Positions 40,335 to 48,605 of a DNA stretch of 64,000 bases are shown here, piece after piece (positions within the stretch are counted from its first letter, which is position 1; every line of letters begins with the position of its first letter). Origin of the DNA: an uncultured Gemmatimonadaceae bacterium (GTDB taxonomy: Bacteria > Gemmatimonadota > Gemmatimonadetes > Gemmatimonadales > GWC2-71-9); contig CAZWXD010000001.1 in the NCBI GenBank assembly GCA_964638035.1, positions 70,369 to 134,368 on the forward strand, in the 5' to 3' direction. The notes under the pieces were generated by a model. The model worked only from the letters and a program-made list of their open reading frames with translations. It did not search any database and was not told where the DNA came from. The translations under genes and the position numbers were made by a program.

Positions 40335-40350
40335 TTATGCATTATGCAAT
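40326..40350. promoter_or_regulatory. ARG-box-like operator (ArgR site)
   Basis: ATTGCATGTTTATGCATTATGCAAT. Half-sites TGCAT (40328-32) and ATGCA (40337-41, 40344-48). AT-rich palindrome in a 70% GC genome. Overlaps the argG ATG; argR is encoded at the end of the operon. Confidence 0.6.
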
Positions 40351-41552
40351 CCAGCACACCCGTCGTCCTCGCCTTCTCCGGCGGCCTCGATACCTCCTGG
40401 TGCGTTCCCTGGCTGGCGCAGCGGGGCCATGCCGTCCACACTGCCTTCGTCAACACCGGCGGCACCACCCCCGGTGAGCGGGCGGCCATCCGGCGGCAGG
40501 CGCTCGCCGTCGGTGCGGTGCAGCACCACGAGGTGGATGCCCGCGCCGCGGTGTACGAGCGGTTCGTGCGCTACCTCATCCAGGGGAACGTGCTGCGCGG
40601 CGAGGTGTACCCGCTGAGTGTCGCCGCCGAGCGGACGCAGCAGGCCATCTCGGTGACCGAGGTGGCGCGCACCCTCGGGGCCCGCGCCGTGGCGCACGGG
40701 TCCACCGGTGCCGGCAACGACCAGGTGCGCTTCGACGTGGCGTTCCGCGTCCTGGCGCCCGACCTCGAGATCATCACGCCGATCCGCGAGACCGGGCTGC
40801 AGCGGTCGCAGGCCATCGCCGACCTCGAGGCCCGCGGCCTGCCGGTGCCGGCGAAGGCGAGTGCGTACAGCATCAACCGCGGGCTGTGGGGCACGACCTA
40901 CGGCGGCGGCTGGACCCACGACACCTGGGCTGGCCCGCCGGATGAGCTCTTCGAGCCCCCCGCGGACGCCCCGGCCCGGCACGAACTGGTGATCGGCTGG
41001 GAGCGCGGCGTGCCCGTGTCCCTCGATGACGAGCCCCTGGCCCCCGCCGACCTCATTGACCGACTCGGCGACCTGGCCGCCACCTACGGCGTGGGCCGCG
41101 GCATCCACGTGGGGGAGACCGCGCTGGGCATCAAGGGCCGCATCGGCTTCGAGGCCGGTGCCGCGCTGCTCCTCATCCAGGCGCATCGCGAGCTGGAGAA
41201 GCTGGTGCTCACGAAGTGGCAGGTGTTCTGGAAGGACCAGCTCGGCCGCTTCTACGGCGACCGGTTGCACGAGGGCCATTACTTCGACCCCGCGCTGCGC
41301 GACATCGAGGCGCTCATCACCAGTTCGCAGCAGCGGGTCACTGGCGAGGTGCGTGTGCGCCTCGCGGCGGGCCGCGCCCAGGTCACCGGCGCGCGCAGCC
41401 CCAGTTCGATGATGGACCGCGCCGTGGCCACCTACGGCGAGGAGAACCGCCTGTGGACGGGCGACGAGGCGCGCGACTTCGCCCGCGTCTCGGCCATTCC
41501 GGAGCTGCTGGCCCGGCGCGCCGGCAGCGCCGGCACCCCGACTGCCCCGTAG
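40344..41552 (+). CDS. argG: Argininosuccinate synthase
   Basis: VVLAFSGGLDTS...; 402 aa with typical ArgG layout. Confidence 0.95.
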   Translation: MQSSTPVVLAFSGGLDTSWCVPWLAQRGHAVHTAFVNTGGTTPGERAAIRRQALAVGAVQHHEVDARAAVYERFVRYLIQGNVLRGEVYPLSVAAERTQQAISVTEVARTLGARAVAHGSTGAGNDQVRFDVAFRVLAPDLEIITPIRETGLQRSQAIADLEARGLPVPAKASAYSINRGLWGTTYGGGWTHDTWAGPPDELFEPPADAPARHELVIGWERGVPVSLDDEPLAPADLIDRLGDLAATYGVGRGIHVGETALGIKGRIGFEAGAALLLIQAHRELEKLVLTKWQVFWKDQLGRFYGDRLHEGHYFDPALRDIEALITSSQQRVTGEVRVRLAAGRAQVTGARSPSSMMDRAVATYGEENRLWTGDEARDFARVSAIPELLARRAGSAGTPTAP

Positions 41553-41562
41553 TGGAGGTCCC

Positions 41563-42648
41563 ATGCTGACGACCCGGGTGAAGCTCGACAAGATCTCCTC
41601 CTCGACCCGCAACGCGGCGCTGGCGAGCGAGGTCATCGTAGGCCACGACATCGTGGCGCAGGAGGGCTACGTGCTCGCCGTGCGCATCCTGGCCGACAAG
41701 TCGACCTACAACGAGGTGGAGGACCTGGGCGGGCGCATGGTGAAGCTCCGGGCCGGCGACGTGCTCGCGGGCACGCTGGGCACGCGGCGCGCGCTGCGCG
41801 GCTATGCCGGTGTGGTGCCACCGCGCATAGCGGTGGGCGACACCATCGAGGTGCTCAACCTCGGTGGCGTGCTGGGGAAGTGCACCTCGGCCAACCCGGA
41901 CATCGGGCCGCCGTTCAAGGCCGAGGTGCTGGGCGCAGTGCTCACCTTCCCGGAGCTGGGCGACCGGGTGGGTCGGCCGGCGCACATCCGCGACCAGGCG
42001 GTGCCGACGGCCGAGACCCTCGTGTGCGACGTGCCGGTGGTGTACGTGGCCGGCACGTGCATGAATGCCGGGAAGACGGTGGCGGCGACCGAGCTGGTGC
42101 GGGGCTTCTTCCGCCAGGGCATGCGGGTGGCCGCGGCCAAGCTTACCGGCGTGTCGCTCATGCGGGATGCGCTCTCGATGCGCGATGCCGGCGCGGCGGC
42201 TGCGCTCACCTTCAACGACATCGGCATCGCCAGCACTCATGCCGGCGTGACGGTGGCGAGCGCCAAGGGCATCTTCAACCGGCTGGTGCAGGTGCGTCCT
42301 GACGTGATCGTGGCCGAGCTGGGCGACGGCATCCTGGGCGAGTACGGGGTGCAGGACATCCTGGCTGATGCGGAGCTGGCCGCCGCCGGCGCCGCCTGGG
42401 TCATGGCGGCCCCCGACCCGGTGGGCTGCTGGGGTGCGAAGGCACTCATGGCGGAGCGTTTCGGCCTGCCGGTCACTGTCTTCACCGGGCCGGCCACCGA
42501 CAACGAGGTGGGCCGCGACTACGTGAACGCGGAACTCTCGCTGCCCGCGTTCAACGCCCGGCGCGAGGCTGACAAGCTGGTCGCGGTGGTGCAGGCCTCG
42601 GTGGCGCAGTGGCGCGCGACGCGCCCCGCCGAACTGACGCTCGCCTGA
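41563..42648 (+). CDS. Uncharacterised protein with Walker-A-like motif, embedded in arginine operon
   Basis: 361 aa. GGAGG lies 4 nt upstream. Walker-A-like GTCMNAGKT at aa 164-172 (nt 42052-42078). 10 nt after the argG stop and 2 nt before the argC start. No family recognised by eye. Confidence 0.85.
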   Translation: MLTTRVKLDKISSSTRNAALASEVIVGHDIVAQEGYVLAVRILADKSTYNEVEDLGGRMVKLRAGDVLAGTLGTRRALRGYAGVVPPRIAVGDTIEVLNLGGVLGKCTSANPDIGPPFKAEVLGAVLTFPELGDRVGRPAHIRDQAVPTAETLVCDVPVVYVAGTCMNAGKTVAATELVRGFFRQGMRVAAAKLTGVSLMRDALSMRDAGAAAALTFNDIGIASTHAGVTVASAKGIFNRLVQVRPDVIVAELGDGILGEYGVQDILADAELAAAGAAWVMAAPDPVGCWGAKALMAERFGLPVTVFTGPATDNEVGRDYVNAELSLPAFNARREADKLVAVVQASVAQWRATRPAELTLA

Positions 42649-42650
42649 CC

Positions 42651-43685
42651 ATGCGCGTTGCCGTGATCGGGGCCGCAGGCTACGCCGGCGGCGAGCTGCT
42701 GCGCCTGCTGCTGGGCCACCCGGACGTGACGAGCTGGGTGGCCACCAGCCGGAGCCAGGCGGGAAAGCCGGTGGGGGAGGTGCATCCGCAGGTGCGGAGC
42801 CTTACCGCCCAGCGCTTCGAGGCGCTGGCACCCGAAGATGCGGCCCGTGGTGCCGACGTGGTGTTCCTGGCCCTGGAGCACGGCGAATCGTCACGCATGG
42901 TGCCGACGCTCCTGGCGTCGGGCACGCGCCTCGTCATCGACATCGCGGCCGACTTCCGGGTGCACGACCTGGCGCTGCATGAGCGCTTCTATGGCACGCA
43001 CCCGGCGCCCGATGCGCTTCGCCACTTTCGCTACGGGCTGGCCGACATCGAGGGCACGTCCCTCCGGGGTGCCCGCGCCATTGCGGCGCCGGGGTGCTTT
43101 GCCACGGCGGCGCAGCTGGCTCTCTACCCGCTGCGGCACCTGCCGGGCTTCCAGCCCTCGCTCTTTGCAGTGACCGGGTCGAGCGGCGCCGGCGTGCAGC
43201 CGCGGCCCACCACCCACCATCCCGCGCGGGCGCACAACCTCTTCGCCTACTCGGTGCTCAACCACCGTCACGAGGCGGAAGTGCTCTCGAGTTGGCGCCG
43301 CTGGACCGGCCGCCCTGACGCGATGGTGCGCCTGATCCCGCACAGCGGACCGTTCGTCCGCGGGATCCACCTCACCCTCCACGGCTTCAGCGCCCCAGGG
43401 CACGAGGCCGCGGCGAAGGACCCAGCCCTGCTCTTCGCCGAGGCCTACGCCGGCCGTCCCTTCGTGCGGGTGCTGGGGGAGGCCCCGGAACTCACGCACG
43501 TCGTGGGCACCAACGAGGCGCAGGTCTTTGCCGCCGGCACCGGCGATGGTCGCGAGGTGCAGGTGATGGTGGTGGTGGACAACCTGGTGAAGGGTGCCGG
43601 CGGGCAGGCGGTACAGGCGATGAACCTGGCGCTCGGGATCGAGGAGACGCGCGGGCTGCTGGGAGGGGGGATCTTTCCATGCTGA
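42651..43685 (+). CDS. argC: N-acyl-gamma-glutamyl-phosphate reductase
   Basis: MRVAVIGAAGYAGGELLRLL...AAPGCFATA catalytic Cys motif. Confidence 0.9.
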   Translation: MRVAVIGAAGYAGGELLRLLLGHPDVTSWVATSRSQAGKPVGEVHPQVRSLTAQRFEALAPEDAARGADVVFLALEHGESSRMVPTLLASGTRLVIDIAADFRVHDLALHERFYGTHPAPDALRHFRYGLADIEGTSLRGARAIAAPGCFATAAQLALYPLRHLPGFQPSLFAVTGSSGAGVQPRPTTHHPARAHNLFAYSVLNHRHEAEVLSSWRRWTGRPDAMVRLIPHSGPFVRGIHLTLHGFSAPGHEAAAKDPALLFAEAYAGRPFVRVLGEAPELTHVVGTNEAQVFAAGTGDGREVQVMVVVDNLVKGAGGQAVQAMNLALGIEETRGLLGGGIFPC

Positions 43686-44845
43686 TGCCGGGGGGAGCAA
43701 CGGGGCAGGCCGGTGCGCTGCTGCCGGTGTACGCCCAGTTTCCGCTGGTGCCGGCCCGGGGCGAGGGGAGCTGGATCATCGACGTCGACGGCAACCGCTG
43801 GCTCGATGCCTATGGCGGCCATGCAGTGGCCAGCACCGGCCACTCGCATCCGCATGTCGCGCGGGCCATCGCCGAGCAGGCGGCAACCCTGCTCTTCTAC
43901 TCCACCGTGCTGCCGCACCCCAGGCGTGCCGAGCTGGCCGCGCGACTCGCCGGCCACATGCCAGCCGGGGTGGACCGGTTCTTCTTCTGCAACTCGGGGG
44001 CGGAAGCCAACGAGAACGCCATGGCCCTGGCCCGGAAGCGCACGGGGCGCGAGGTGGTGGTGTCGGTCACGGGAGGGTGGCACGGCCGCAGCGTGGCCAC
44101 GCTGGCCGTCACCGATGGCGCGAAATACGAGGCAGGGGCCCGCCGTGCGGGGATGCCCCTGTCGCTCCGCGTGCCGTTCGACGACGTCGAGGCGGTGGAG
44201 CGGGCGGTGGACGAGTCCGTGGCCTGCCTGATTATCGAGCCGGTGCAGGGGATGTCGGGTGCACGCGACTGCTCGCACGAGTTCCTCCGTGCGGCGCGTG
44301 ACGCCTGCAGCCGGCATGGGGTGGCGCTCATCTTCGACGAGATCCAGTGCGGCGTGGGGCGCTCGGGGCACTTCACGGCGGCGGGGTTGTACGGCGTCAC
44401 GCCCGACGCCATCACGATGGCGAAGGGCCTGGGCTCCGGCTTTCCCATGGCGGCGGTGGCGGTCGGTGATTTCCTGGCCGAGGGCGTGTCCACCGGCGAC
44501 CTGGGGAGCACCTTTGGTGGCGGCCCGCTCGCGTGCGCCGCTGGCCTGGCCACGCTCGACGTCATCGAGCGTGAGGGCCTGGTGGCGAACGCCGCGCGCG
44601 TGGGCGGCATCCTGCGGGATGGTGCCCTTGCCCTGGGCGTTCCTGGTGTCCAGGGGCACGGGCTCCTGCTGGGCCTTCGCCTTGGACGGCCAGCACAGGC
44701 GGTCCAGCGGGCGCTCTTCGGGAAGCGTGTCCTCACGGGGACGGCCAGCGATCCCGACGTCCTGCGGCTCCTGCCGCCGCTCACCTTCAGCGAAGCGGAG
44801 GCCACGCTGCTGTTGCGGGCGCTGGGCGAGGTGCTCACCGCGTGA
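43679..44845 (+). CDS. argD: Acetylornithine/succinylornithine-family aminotransferase (class III PLP)
   Basis: FFCNSGAEANE...IFDEIQCGVGRSG...MAKGLG. Confidence 0.9.
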   Translation: MLMPGGATGQAGALLPVYAQFPLVPARGEGSWIIDVDGNRWLDAYGGHAVASTGHSHPHVARAIAEQAATLLFYSTVLPHPRRAELAARLAGHMPAGVDRFFFCNSGAEANENAMALARKRTGREVVVSVTGGWHGRSVATLAVTDGAKYEAGARRAGMPLSLRVPFDDVEAVERAVDESVACLIIEPVQGMSGARDCSHEFLRAARDACSRHGVALIFDEIQCGVGRSGHFTAAGLYGVTPDAITMAKGLGSGFPMAAVAVGDFLAEGVSTGDLGSTFGGGPLACAAGLATLDVIEREGLVANAARVGGILRDGALALGVPGVQGHGLLLGLRLGRPAQAVQRALFGKRVLTGTASDPDVLRLLPPLTFSEAEATLLLRALGEVLTA

Positions 44846-45600
44846 CGCCCCCATTCCTGCTGGTGCACAGCCTGGGCGGGCGGGCCGCCTTCTGGGATGC
44901 GGTGCGCCGGGCGATGCCTGCGCCGGCGGTCACGCATGCCTTCGACCTCCCCGGACATGGTGCCGCCCGGGGCCAGCCGGCGCGGTCGCTCGATGACTTT
45001 GCCACCGCGGTGCTGCGCGATGCTGACCGGGCCGGGCTCACGACATTTGTGCTCGTGGGCCACAGCTTCGGGGCGCTGGTGGCGCTGGCCGCCGCCGTCC
45101 GGGCAGGGGCCCGCGCGGAAGCGCTGGTGCTGGTGGATGCGGCCGGCGCGATGAATGCGGTGCCCGCCGGGGCACTGGAGGACTTCCTGGCCCGGGCCTC
45201 CGGCCCCGCGGGGCGCGAGTTCGTGGCCCAGGCATACGAGCAGAACCTCGAACGGGCGGCACCAGCCACGAAGGTGTGCGTGCTCGACTCGCTTGCGGAT
45301 ACCGACATGGATGCCGTCGTGGCCGCGTACACCGCACTCTTCGGCAGCGACTCCCCGGGCCTGCTGTCGCGCTATCCGGGTCCGGTGCGCCTCATTGTCG
45401 ATGCCGCCAACGATTCGCCCATGGCCCTGCATGCGCAGCACCCCGACCTGGACGTCGTGCCGGTCGAGGGCACCAGCCACTGGATTCCCCTCGACCAGCC
45501 GGGAGCCATTGCCACCGCGCTTGCCGGATGGCCGGCGCCCGGCCGTGGGGCAGGGACCCGGCCACAGCCTACCCACACCCAACGAGCGTCGGTGACATGA
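44842..45600 (+). CDS. Alpha/beta hydrolase embedded in arginine operon
   Basis: GHSFG nucleophile elbow (aa 73-77) and C-terminal GTSHW. GTGA overlap with argD and ATGA overlap with argF'. Confidence 0.8.
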   Translation: MTPPFLLVHSLGGRAAFWDAVRRAMPAPAVTHAFDLPGHGAARGQPARSLDDFATAVLRDADRAGLTTFVLVGHSFGALVALAAAVRAGARAEALVLVDAAGAMNAVPAGALEDFLARASGPAGREFVAQAYEQNLERAAPATKVCVLDSLADTDMDAVVAAYTALFGSDSPGLLSRYPGPVRLIVDAANDSPMALHAQHPDLDVVPVEGTSHWIPLDQPGAIATALAGWPAPGRGAGTRPQPTHTQRASVT

Positions 45601-46616
45601 AGCGCGACTTCCTTTCGATGGAATCGTGGGGGCAGGACGCCTGCCTGGCCATCCTCGACCTTGCGGCTCGGGTCAAGCGCGGCGAGGTGCTGGGCGGGCT
45701 CGAGCGGAAGGTCATGGCGATGGTGTTCATGGACCCGAGCCTCCGCACGCGGGCGAGCTTCGAGGCCGCGATGTTCCTGCACGGGGGCCACGGCATCGTG
45801 CTCGAGCCGGGGAAGGGGAGCTGGTCGCTCGAGACCGAGCCCGGCGCGGTGATGGACGGCACCACGGTGGAGCACATCCGCGATGCCGCAAGGGTGCTGG
45901 GTCGCTATGCCGACGTGCTCGGGGTGCGCACCTTCCCGCGCGGCACCGACTGGGACACGGTGCGGCAGGACCTCGTCATCCGGCGCTTCGCCGAGTACTG
46001 CGAGAAGCCCGTCATCAACCTCGAGTCCAGCCGGCGCCACCCCTGCCAGGGGCTCGCCGATGCGCTCACCCTGCGCGAGAAGCTGGGTGATCCCCGGGGC
46101 AAGCGGTTCGTGCTCATGTGGGCCTGGCACCCGAAGGCCCTGCCCACCGCCGTGCCCGCCAGTGCGGCGATCGCCGCGGCGATGCTGGGGATGGAGGTGG
46201 TGATCGCCCGGCCGGATGGCTATGAGCTCGACCCCGAGGACACCGCACTGGTGCGCCAGCTTGCGCGGGACAACGGTGCGATGATCCACATCAACAACGA
46301 TCCCGACGATGCCGTGGTGGGGGCCGATGCCGTGTACGTGAAGTCGTGGGGCTCGGTCGCCCACTTCGGGAGGCCCGATGACGAGGCGGCCGCACGGCAG
46401 GGCCTGCGCGACTGGCGGCTCACCGTGCCGCGCCTCCGCTCGACGCGGGGCGGCAAGGGTGCGGTCATGCACTGCCTTCCCGTGCGGCGCAACGTCGAGC
46501 TCGATGACGCGGTCATCGACGGGCCGAACTCGGTCGTGGTGGACGAGGCAGAGAACCGGCTGCACGTGCAGCGGGCGTTGCTCCTGGAGATGCTTGGAAA
46601 GGATCCATCGCGATGA
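45597..46616 (+). CDS. N-acyl-L-ornithine carbamoyltransferase (AOTCase/SOTCase family, argF')
   Basis: FMDPSLRTRASFE...GAVMDGTTVEHIRDAARVLGRY...RRHPCQGLAD...HCLPVRRNVE...DEAENRLHVQ parallels the Xanthomonas and Bacteroides argF' enzymes as remembered. Confidence 0.9.
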   Translation: MKRDFLSMESWGQDACLAILDLAARVKRGEVLGGLERKVMAMVFMDPSLRTRASFEAAMFLHGGHGIVLEPGKGSWSLETEPGAVMDGTTVEHIRDAARVLGRYADVLGVRTFPRGTDWDTVRQDLVIRRFAEYCEKPVINLESSRRHPCQGLADALTLREKLGDPRGKRFVLMWAWHPKALPTAVPASAAIAAAMLGMEVVIARPDGYELDPEDTALVRQLARDNGAMIHINNDPDDAVVGADAVYVKSWGSVAHFGRPDDEAAARQGLRDWRLTVPRLRSTRGGKGAVMHCLPVRRNVELDDAVIDGPNSVVVDEAENRLHVQRALLLEMLGKDPSR

Positions 46617-47548
46617 CGATCGACCCGACGAAGGGCATTGCCGGCCTGAAGGGCGCCCTCCGCTACGTGCGGGCATACCGCGACCGCGTGTTCGTGGTGA
46701 AGCTGGGGGGCGACGTGCTCACCGACGCCGACGTCCTCGACCACGTCACGGCCCAGCTCGCCCTGCTCGCGTCGCTTGGCATCCGCCTCGTCGTGGTGCA
46801 CGGCGGCGGGCCCCAGGCGTCGGCGCTGACCCGCCGCCTGGGGGGCGAGCCCACCATGGTGGCGGGCCGGCGGGTCACCGACGACCAGGCCCTCGAGGTG
46901 GCCAAGATGGTGTATGGCGGGCAGCTCAACATCGACCTGCTGGCCGCCCTGCGCGAGCACCGGCTGCAGGCGGTGGGGCTGAGCGGGGTGGATGCCGACC
47001 TCCTCACGGCCCGCCGGCGCCCGCCGGTGAACGTGGTGGATGACGCCGGCGCCTCGCGCACGGTGGACTACGGCCACGTGGGCGACATCGTGCGGGTGGA
47101 CACCCACGTGCTCACGACACTCATGGACGCGCGCTGCGTGCCGGTGATCGCGAGCCTGGCGGGCGACGACGAGGGCAACGTGTACAACGTGAATGCCGAC
47201 ACGGTGGCCGAGTCGGTGGCCGTGGCCCTGCAGGCATTGAAGCTCATCTTCCTCACCGGGGCGCCGGGCGTCCTGCGCGACCGCACCGACCCCACCACCC
47301 TCGTCACCTTTGCCGACCCGGACGACCTCGAGGGGCTGATGGCGAGCGGTGCGCTGGCCGGCGGGATGCGGCCCAAGGTGGAGGCGTGCATCCGGGCGGC
47401 GACAAGCGGCGTGGAGCGCACCCATATCATCGACGGCCGGGCGCCCGACGCGCTGCTGCTCGAGGTGTTCACCGGTGCCGGGTGTGGCACCATGATCGTG
47501 GGGCGGAAGGAGAAGGCCACCTACCTTGGCGTCGACCTCGCCGGCTGA
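46613..47548 (+). CDS. argB: N-acyl-glutamate kinase
   Basis: FVVKLGGDV...VVVHGGGPQ...NVNADTVA. Confidence 0.9.
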   Translation: MTIDPTKGIAGLKGALRYVRAYRDRVFVVKLGGDVLTDADVLDHVTAQLALLASLGIRLVVVHGGGPQASALTRRLGGEPTMVAGRRVTDDQALEVAKMVYGGQLNIDLLAALREHRLQAVGLSGVDADLLTARRRPPVNVVDDAGASRTVDYGHVGDIVRVDTHVLTTLMDARCVPVIASLAGDDEGNVYNVNADTVAESVAVALQALKLIFLTGAPGVLRDRTDPTTLVTFADPDDLEGLMASGALAGGMRPKVEACIRAATSGVERTHIIDGRAPDALLLEVFTGAGCGTMIVGRKEKATYLGVDLAG

Positions 47549-48605
47549 AGTCCAGCTCCTCGCCGACCTCATTGCCATTCCCTCGGTCAGTGGCGACGAG
47601 GGAGCGGTGGCCCGTCACGTGGAAGGCACGGTGCGGGGCTGGGGACTCGACGTGGTCCGGGGAGACTGGGGCGTGCGGGTGGAGGTGCGGGCCCCCCACC
47701 CCGGACCGACGCTGGCCCTGGTGTCCCACCTCGACGTGGTGCCCCCTGGCGAGGGATGGACCCGCGACCCGTGGGCGCCGGTGATGGAGGAAGGACGCCT
47801 CTACGGCCGGGGTTCCGGCGATGCCAAGGCGTCGGTGGCGGCGATGCTCCAGGCCGCGCGCGACCTGGCGGAGGCCGGTGGCCCGCGCCACGGCCGCCTC
47901 CTCGTGGTGCTCGGGCTGGGCGAGGAGACGAAGCACACGAGCATGCCGCGCGCCCTCGAGGCGGTGGGCACCGTGGATGCCGCCCTCGTGGGTGAGCCCA
48001 CCAACCTCGACCTCGCCGTCGCACAGCGCGGCCTCATGATGGTCGACCTGGTGGCCCACGGCGAGCAGCGGCACGCCGGCTACGGCGCAGGGGAACCGTC
48101 CAGGAATGCCGCCGTCGAGCTGGCCGCCGACCTGGTGCAACTCGGCTCCCTCTGCCAGGGCCGCGAGCACCCCATCCTGGGCCGCGTGTCGCTGACCCCC
48201 ACGATGCTGGAGGCCGGTGTCAGCCGCAACGTCACGCCACCCTCGGCACGGGCGGTGCTCGACATCCGCAGCACCCCGGCATGGTCCCACGACGAGATCG
48301 CCGCGGAGTTGCGCCAGCACCTGCGCTCGGAGGTGGTGGTGACCTCCACGCGCCTCGTACCCTGCGAGACGCCACCGCGATCGCGCCTGCTCACAGTGGC
48401 GTTACGCGCGCGACCGGCGGCCAGGCAGTATGGCAGCCCCACCTGCTCCGACTGGGTCTTCCTCAACGGTCGCGACGTGATCAAGGTGGGGCCCGGCACC
48501 AGCCGGCGGTCGCACACGGCCGACGAGTACGTGGACCTGGCAGAGGTGACCGAGGCCCGCGCCTTCTATGGCCGCGTGGCGGAGGACTACCTCAATGAGG
48601 CGTGA
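47526..48605 (+). CDS. M20-family deacylase (ArgE/DapE-like)
   Basis: LIAIPSVSGDE...SHLDVVPPGEGW...RGSGDAKASVAAM...GEE. TTG start overlaps argB. Confidence 0.8.
   Translation: MASTSPAEVQLLADLIAIPSVSGDEGAVARHVEGTVRGWGLDVVRGDWGVRVEVRAPHPGPTLALVSHLDVVPPGEGWTRDPWAPVMEEGRLYGRGSGDAKASVAAMLQAARDLAEAGGPRHGRLLVVLGLGEETKHTSMPRALEAVGTVDAALVGEPTNLDLAVAQRGLMMVDLVAHGEQRHAGYGAGEPSRNAAVELAADLVQLGSLCQGREHPILGRVSLTPTMLEAGVSRNVTPPSARAVLDIRSTPAWSHDEIAAELRQHLRSEVVVTSTRLVPCETPPRSRLLTVALRARPAARQYGSPTCSDWVFLNGRDVIKVGPGTSRRSHTADEYVDLAEVTEARAFYGRVAEDYLNEA

Follow-up and report, generated by a model that had tools for sequence, protein, structure and literature searches.

An accessory alpha/beta hydrolase gene in an arginine operon of uncultured Gemmatimonadales

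Why does the arginine operon of an uncultured Gemmatimonadaceae bacterium carry a gene for a serine hydrolase between two of its biosynthetic genes? The window analysed here is a stretch of 64,000 nucleotides of contig CAZWXD010000001.1 (assembly GCA_964638035.1, positions 70,369 to 134,368 of the forward strand), in which the gene in question, abh, occupies the fifth place in the order argG (40344-41552), P-loop gene, argC, argD, abh, argF′, argB, M20 deacylase gene, argH, argR. Such a gene is not part of textbook arginine operons, as the original prediction, made from the sequence alone, had correctly remarked; that prediction went on to propose abh as a second candidate for the N-acylation of glutamate, in the manner of MetX-type acyltransferases. 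The analysis identified abh instead as an accessory gene of the operon and not a pathway step, being absent from the majority of operons of this type and having undergone several losses or exchanges. The proposed acyltransferase function is close to refuted, failing on family tests, fold class and distribution. The reading preferred here, which is given an even chance of being correct, is that abh encodes a dispensable hydrolase with a link to the pathway, acting on some small polar acyl compound and serving auxiliary deprotection or the clean-up of a by-product.

The open reading frame (ORF) of abh, 44842-45600 on the forward strand, has 253 codons including the stop and encodes a protein of 252 amino acids (P0001). 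The gene and its signals are as follows.

44842-45600, forward strand: abh, alpha/beta-fold serine hydrolase gene (ORF; Pfam PF12697/PF00561; AlphaFold2 predicted local distance difference test (pLDDT) score of 93; ratio of nonsynonymous to synonymous substitution rates (omega) of 0.13-0.27).
44842-44845, forward strand: GTGA, in which the abh GTG start (44842-44844) overlaps the argD TGA stop (44843-44845), read directly in the sequence.
45597-45600, forward strand: ATGA, in which the abh TGA stop (45598-45600) overlaps the argF′ ATG start (45597-45599), read directly in the sequence.
44828-44831, forward strand: GAGG, a possible ribosome-binding site 10 nucleotides before the abh GTG, within the 3′ end of argD, predicted from the sequence.

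Both overlaps had been described in the original prediction. The GTGA-type overlap of four nucleotides between argD and abh is also found in L120, L165, L166 and L167, contigs that carry the same arrangement, and the ATGA-type overlap between abh and argF′ in L166 and L167. No in-frame ATG, GTG or TTG lies upstream of the abh start, back to the stop codon at 44572-44574, and a scan of the arginine operon for promoters and terminators found none around abh. The N-terminus (window 44842-44880) starts directly at the strand with the oxyanion-hole motif HSLGG; an N-terminal beta-hairpin of about 20 residues, possessed by most orthologues (P0028 among them), is missing from the window protein and from its closest relatives (P0003, P0004, P0005, P0008). 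DNA nearly identical to that of the window has been sequenced from activated sludge, wastewater, bioreactor, biofilm and soil metagenomes, with no RNA dataset among the listed sequencing runs.

The catalytic apparatus of the hydrolase is complete, and its parts can be placed as follows.

45058-45072, forward strand: nucleophile elbow G73-H74-S75-F76-G77, with the Ser75 codon AGC at 45064-45066; G73, H74, S75 and G77 are invariant in 42 orthologues.
45166-45345, forward strand: four-helix lid, residues 109-168, including N135 (45244-45246), R138 (45253-45255) and Y163 (45328-45330), placed from the helices of the model and from conservation.
45400-45438, forward strand: loop and helix after strand 7, with D187, N190, D191 (probable acid of the triad, 45412-45414), S192, P193, H197 and Q199, placed by conservation.
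45469-45483, forward strand: G210-T211-S212-H213-W214, with the codon of the catalytic His213 at 45478-45480; H213 and W214 are invariant.

Ser75 and His213 are both invariant across the 42 orthologues, and position 191 is aspartate or glutamate in about 95% of them. The two motifs named in the original prediction, GHSFG (residues 73-77) and GTSHW with its histidine (residues 210-214), are thus upheld in a protein of the predicted length, which scores above the gathering cut-offs of Pfam Abhydrolase_6 (PF12697, 68.9 bits, E 1.3e-18, cut-off 26.3) and Abhydrolase_1 (PF00561, 45.7 bits, E 8.7e-12, cut-off 25.8). The AlphaFold2 model (mean pLDDT 93, predicted template modelling score 0.91) is a sandwich with a lid of four helices (109-120, 124-135, 141-152, 156-168); profile score, conservation of the elbow, acid and histidine, and predicted fold all agree on the alpha/beta hydrolase superfamily. 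With Foldseek, 500 PDB entries matched at E<=0.001, and template modelling (TM) scores reached 0.70-0.77 for the best of them, at 14-23% sequence identity. Among solved structures, those closest in fold are DAD2, D14, KAI2, RsbQ, the Pseudomonas hydrolase 3om8, MenH and BioH; those closest in sequence are esterases and lactonases, with 5egn, 5a62 and 4uhc as examples.

Within this superfamily abh lies outside every named subfamily. The classification suggested in the original prediction, against profiles of MetX, BioH and PcaD, gave scores below every cut-off: BioH 51.2 bits against 206.95 (TIGR01738) and 40.1 bits against 449 (NF007674), PcaD 56.7 bits against 255.85 (TIGR02427), and MetX 26.5 bits against 296 (NF006449), with residues 33-102 of abh aligned to positions 105-174 of a profile of 344. 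MenH scored 41.7 bits against 208.55 (TIGR03695), and all of the named NCBIfam models (PcaD, AcoC, BioH, MenH, MetX) are far under their cut-offs. A type II thioesterase profile (PF00975) was matched at 31.5 bits against 26.4, but the match is partial, covering residues 6-98 on profile positions 4-100 of 226. A search of the ESM Atlas for look-alikes of abh yielded generic alpha/beta hydrolase clusters only.

These results bear directly on the idea of abh as a MetX-like enzyme that N-acylates glutamate and so supplies the first step missing from the pathway. The idea draws on a fold and a catalytic triad that abh has in common with MetX, on the absence of ArgA and ArgJ, and on the position of the gene inside the operon. 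Against it stand the MetX score, confined to residues 33-102, and the small size of abh, whose 252 residues and small four-helix lid place it nearest to D14, RsbQ, BioH and MenH in fold. The operons of 19 other genera have no abh, and ArgJ, looked for in two of these genera (G013 and G015), is absent there as well. A P-loop gene described below accompanies the operon everywhere, is conserved like the core enzymes and is the published candidate for the step in question. A MetX-like role is accordingly considered very improbable, and the corresponding claim of the original prediction is not supported.

The linkage noticed in the window recurs in every relative that carries the gene: abh lies between argD and argF′ in 16/16 loci, of which 11 belong to genomes of the genus, one to G017 (a genome of another genus) and four to the metagenome contigs L120, L165, L166 and L167. 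Orthologues with 43-61% identity were found in 11/11 other genomes of the genus and in G017. In 19 other genera of the family with the same operon, argD directly abuts argF′ and abh is absent. This is not the distribution of an obligatory enzyme: abh occurs in 2 of the 21 family genera examined and in 0/20 operons of Steroidobacteraceae. No hydrolase was found within 9 kb of the 20 Steroidobacteraceae arginine operons, nor in four deeper Gemmatimonadota arginine operons. Two genomes nested among the abh-bearing lineages (G016 and G105) contain no abh orthologue anywhere, and 80 genome loci of relatives at <=36% identity showed no linkage to arginine genes beyond two incidental neighbours. With abh, the succinyl-type operon takes a lineage-specific form.

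On the tree of argD plus argF′, the abh-bearing operons require at least three changes (at least one gain and two losses or exchanges), and their monophyly is rejected (approximately unbiased test, p 0.0001). On the tree of abh itself, the operon-linked copies group in a single clade (support 100/99) with an internal order unlike that of the operon tree. The single clade, the discordant operon tree and the high synonymous divergence (dS) of abh, taken together, point to one recruitment of abh, after which the gene was lost in places and alleles may have been exchanged across homologous flanks. In the comparison with the closest relative (L165 6001-6750), the dS of abh is 0.45 versus 0.05-0.31 for all nine neighbours; this excess and the discordant trees suggest that alleles of abh may have been exchanged by recombination across conserved flanks.

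The substitution pattern is that of a functional gene under purifying selection, if the least constrained member of the operon. In unsaturated pairs, the omega of abh is 0.13-0.23 versus 0.04-0.08 for argD and argF′. In the closest pair (window versus L165), it is 0.27 by the method of Nei and Gojobori (NG86) and 0.19 by maximum likelihood (ML), while omega is 0.02-0.15 in 8 of the 9 other operon genes and 0.26 for argG by ML. The possibility that abh of the window is a pseudogene was considered and rejected, the catalytic and signature residues all being kept at an omega of 0.19-0.27. Frameshifts in three other genomes (G007, G009, G010) also hit neighbouring genes and for that reason look like assembly errors.

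A more specific tie to the operon comes from ten residues (N135, R138, Y163, D187, N190, S192, H197, Q199, S212 and W214) that are invariant in 42 operon-linked orthologues. The window protein has all ten and lies between argD and argF′, placing it in the operon-specific clade defined here by these features. In the wider family (146 clusters), positions 135, 138, 163, 187 and 199 are mostly L/I/M, G, L/F, T/S/A and L, respectively, and the polar residues N135, R138, Y163, D187 and Q199 belong to the operon-linked clade alone. The wider family has H9, S75, D99, L136, V147, Y178, N190, D/E191, P193, H213, W214 and D218 in common with abh. When a profile built from the 42 operon-linked sequences was run on 1.84 billion representatives, with clusters at 50% identity, 290 clusters were obtained at E<=1e-30, of which only four exceeded 300 bits and the remainder scored from 236 bits down; the operon-linked clade is a very small branch, of 4 clusters at 50% identity, within a large hydrolase family. 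The extra cluster representatives that bear the signature, P0122 (9/10 residues) and P0123 (10/10), are both encoded between argD and argF′, and of the signature-free relatives with their context checked (P0046, P0050, P0125 and 80 genome loci) none is linked to arginine genes. Several sequences of the wider family have long basic or hydrophobic N-terminal extensions resembling signals or anchors; its fusion partners are other hydrolase domains, AMP-binding domains and DUF4440, which offer no functional lead. The polar and charged shift in the lid and beside the catalytic loop suggests that the substrate may have changed to a polar, probably anionic one.

The signature has to be set against another explanation, that abh landed in the operon by chance and has been retained for its own use, doing work outside arginine metabolism such as the hydrolysis of esters in general or of xenobiotics. 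A chance landing would account for a single insertion event, for the absence of the gene from most operons of this type, and for its repeated loss or exchange; it would also suit a gene with the highest omega (by NG86), the highest nonsynonymous divergence and the lowest G+C content at third codon positions (GC3) in the operon, derived from a large family with very varied contexts and fusions. It is at odds with the ten invariant residues, five of them polar replacements, which occur only in copies inside arginine operons and therefore indicate that a defined new substrate was gained on entry into the operon. Nor does it explain why the overlaps of four nucleotides on both sides have been retained across lineages with saturated synonymous sites. 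On balance this explanation is thought unlikely, while being the most credible of the alternatives to a pathway-linked hydrolase.

What substrate the operon could offer depends on the pathway that it encodes, and here the neighbours of abh are informative.

43679-44845, forward strand: argD, acyl-ornithine aminotransferase, the upstream neighbour (PF00202, E 1.1e-90; TIGR00707).
45597-46616, forward strand: argF′, N-acylornithine carbamoyltransferase of the succinyl type, the downstream neighbour (NF003384, 400 bits versus a cut-off of 288).
41563-42648, forward strand: P-loop orphan gene of 361 amino acids between argG and argC, predicted N-succinylglutamate synthase (no Pfam or NCBIfam family above cut-off).
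47526-48605, forward strand: M20 deacylase gene, argE-like (PF01546 and PF07687), kept in operons with and without abh.

ArgF′ has valine at the position equivalent to Glu92 of the Xanthomonas enzyme (codon 45867-45869), and its top PDB match is the E92V mutant 3l06, aligned as ...vmdgttvehi... Replacement of Glu92 by Ala, Pro, Ser or Val switches the carbamoyltransferase to N-succinylornithine (GapMind 2026 preprint, 10.1101/2024.10.14.618325). The valine at the switch residue, taken with that preprint, indicates that the operon is of the succinyl type, with succinylated intermediates. The first enzyme of this pathway, and in some lineages the desuccinylase, are predicted steps only (10.1101/2024.10.14.618325).

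For the first step, the P-loop gene belongs to the family predicted in the same preprint (10.1101/2024.10.14.618325) to be N-succinylglutamate synthase. It is present in every genome having the operon, with 66-86% identity within the family, and was detected in 74/124 sampled genomes of the family and 40/41 sampled genomes of Steroidobacteraceae. In all of the 39 loci fetched it lies inside the arginine cluster, always followed by argC and then argD. A search for ArgJ in 12 genomes of the genus (that of the window included) and in G013 and G015 found none. Given its co-occurrence with the operon and the published prediction, the P-loop gene is a much better candidate than abh for the first step. 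As for the boundaries of these genes, the longest ORF of argC starts at 42609 and would overlap the P-loop gene by 40 nucleotides; an ATG at 42651 and the gene call in a relative suggest that argC starts there instead, 2 nucleotides past the stop of the P-loop gene. Elsewhere in the operon, several sister genera (L124, L125, L126, L132) have a gap of 130-275 nucleotides between argF′ and argB in which no gene was detected; in the window these genes overlap by four nucleotides.

At the deacylation step, the M20 gene is present in every abh-carrying operon, and so the hydrolase would be at most auxiliary. An M20 protein, BT3549, is a genetic candidate for N-succinylcitrulline desuccinylase (bioRxiv 10.1101/741918). 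The 20 Steroidobacteraceae operons (L145-L164) consist of argG, P-loop gene, argC, argD, argF′, argB and argH, with no argE-like gene within the operon, and the desuccinylase of S. denitrificans (Steroidobacteraceae) is likewise noted as unidentified (10.1101/2024.10.14.618325).

A stricter assignment to the pathway can be imagined, in which abh is either a serine-hydrolase desuccinylase of N-succinylcitrulline or N-succinylornithine, or a succinyl-recycling transferase, a non-homologous analogue of ArgJ; the transferase would carry the succinyl group from N-succinylcitrulline or N-succinylornithine, by way of an acyl-enzyme at Ser75, to glutamate, forming N-succinylglutamate. Both alpha/beta-fold amidases and alpha/beta-fold acyltransferases are known, which lends the assignment some plausibility, as do the succinylated intermediates on which the operon runs, the failure to find ArgJ in the genus, and the suitability of a polar and charged signature for amino-acid or dicarboxylate ligands. 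Recycling would be a dispensable saving of energy, consistent with a patchy distribution. The enzymes that abh would relieve nevertheless show no relaxation of constraint in the genomes carrying it, omega being 0.08-0.15 for the M20 deacylase and 0.04-0.10 for the P-loop gene. No acyltransferase family was matched above its cut-off, and the Steroidobacteraceae operons lacking argE recruited no such hydrolase. Such a dedicated pathway enzyme is therefore regarded as quite improbable. The fallback ideas of the original prediction in their general form, deacylation or acyl recycling by abh, are neither established nor refuted.

Returning to the preferred reading of abh as an auxiliary hydrolase, the following sequence of events may be proposed. 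An ancestor within one Gemmatimonadales family would have recruited abh once from a large hydrolase family and placed it downstream of argD and ahead of argF′ in a succinyl-type operon, there to be co-translated with its neighbours. The product, a serine hydrolase with the triad Ser75-Asp191-His213 and a small four-helix lid, would work in the cytoplasm. Its substrate would be a small, polar acyl compound, probably bearing a carboxylate, that arises when the pathway runs, with an N-succinyl amino acid and a by-product of the succinylated intermediates as candidates. Attack by Ser75 on the carbonyl of this compound would give an acyl-enzyme, and water activated by His213 would release the acid, so that abh might act as an auxiliary deacylase or a clean-up enzyme. 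Both the type of substrate and the connection to arginine metabolism are inferences.

Several observations weigh against this proposal. The deacylation that it invokes is already served by the M20 enzyme in every abh-carrying operon. The gene is the fastest-evolving of the operon, with 79% amino acid identity to its counterpart in L165 versus 93-99% for the other nine genes, and at 0.82 it has a lower GC3 than any other gene there; both features fit a marginal role. In G006 (L013), abh has an insertion of one nucleotide (an extra G, GTA-G-CCG) in a locus where argD, argF′ and argB are intact; whether this frameshift marks a true pseudogene or an error of long-read sequencing is ambiguous. The linkage to arginine genes counts as one evolutionary event, because the operon-linked clade has a single origin, and no independent recruitment was found elsewhere. 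Finally, the signature residues are assumed to line the active-site pocket on the strength of the usual architecture of the fold.

The analysis removes abh as a candidate for the first step of the succinyl-type pathway and defines a small, cleanly delimited hydrolase subfamily, the residue signature of which is found only inside succinyl-type arginine operons. Literature on succinylglutamate synthase and succinylcitrulline was searched, and none of the papers so found brings a serine hydrolase into this pathway. If abh does act on succinylated intermediates or by-products, it would be a first case of arginine biosynthesis being served by a serine hydrolase, whether in recycling, in auxiliary deprotection or in the repair of metabolites; otherwise it stands as a well-documented operon passenger. 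The impact is limited either way, abh being dispensable and confined to a few related, uncultured wastewater lineages of Gemmatimonadales.

Among known systems, the proteins of PF12697/PF00561 and the COG0596 type have their fold, G-X-S-X-G elbow, Ser-Asp-His triad and length in common with abh, but membership of such catch-all families says nothing about the substrate, and the JGI label "pimeloyl-ACP methyl ester carboxylesterase" on homologues is generic. The best-scoring named relatives by sequence are the 3-oxoadipate enol-lactonase PcaD (TIGR02427; NF051488 PcaDC) and the proteins 5egn, 5a62, 4uhc and 3om8, which are of similar size and have a similar lid; abh has no pca genes nearby, and the residues that mark the operon clade are not features of the family. 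The butenolide hydrolase-receptors RsbQ, DAD2, D14 and KAI2, together with MenH and BioH, have the same V-shaped lid of four helices as abh, but only 14-23% identity to it and other gene contexts. MetX, the homoserine O-acetyl- or O-succinyltransferase, resembles abh in its alpha/beta fold, Ser-His-Asp triad and acyl-enzyme chemistry and differs in that its profile has 344 positions, of which abh (252 amino acids, with a short four-helix lid) matches about 70 residues; it is not among the nearest folds listed. The possible functional analogues of abh, the M20 deacylases ArgE/DapE and the acyltransferase ArgJ, which remove or transfer the N-acyl protecting group in arginine synthesis, are unrelated to it in fold and chemistry, the former being metallo-hydrolases and the latter of the Ntn type.

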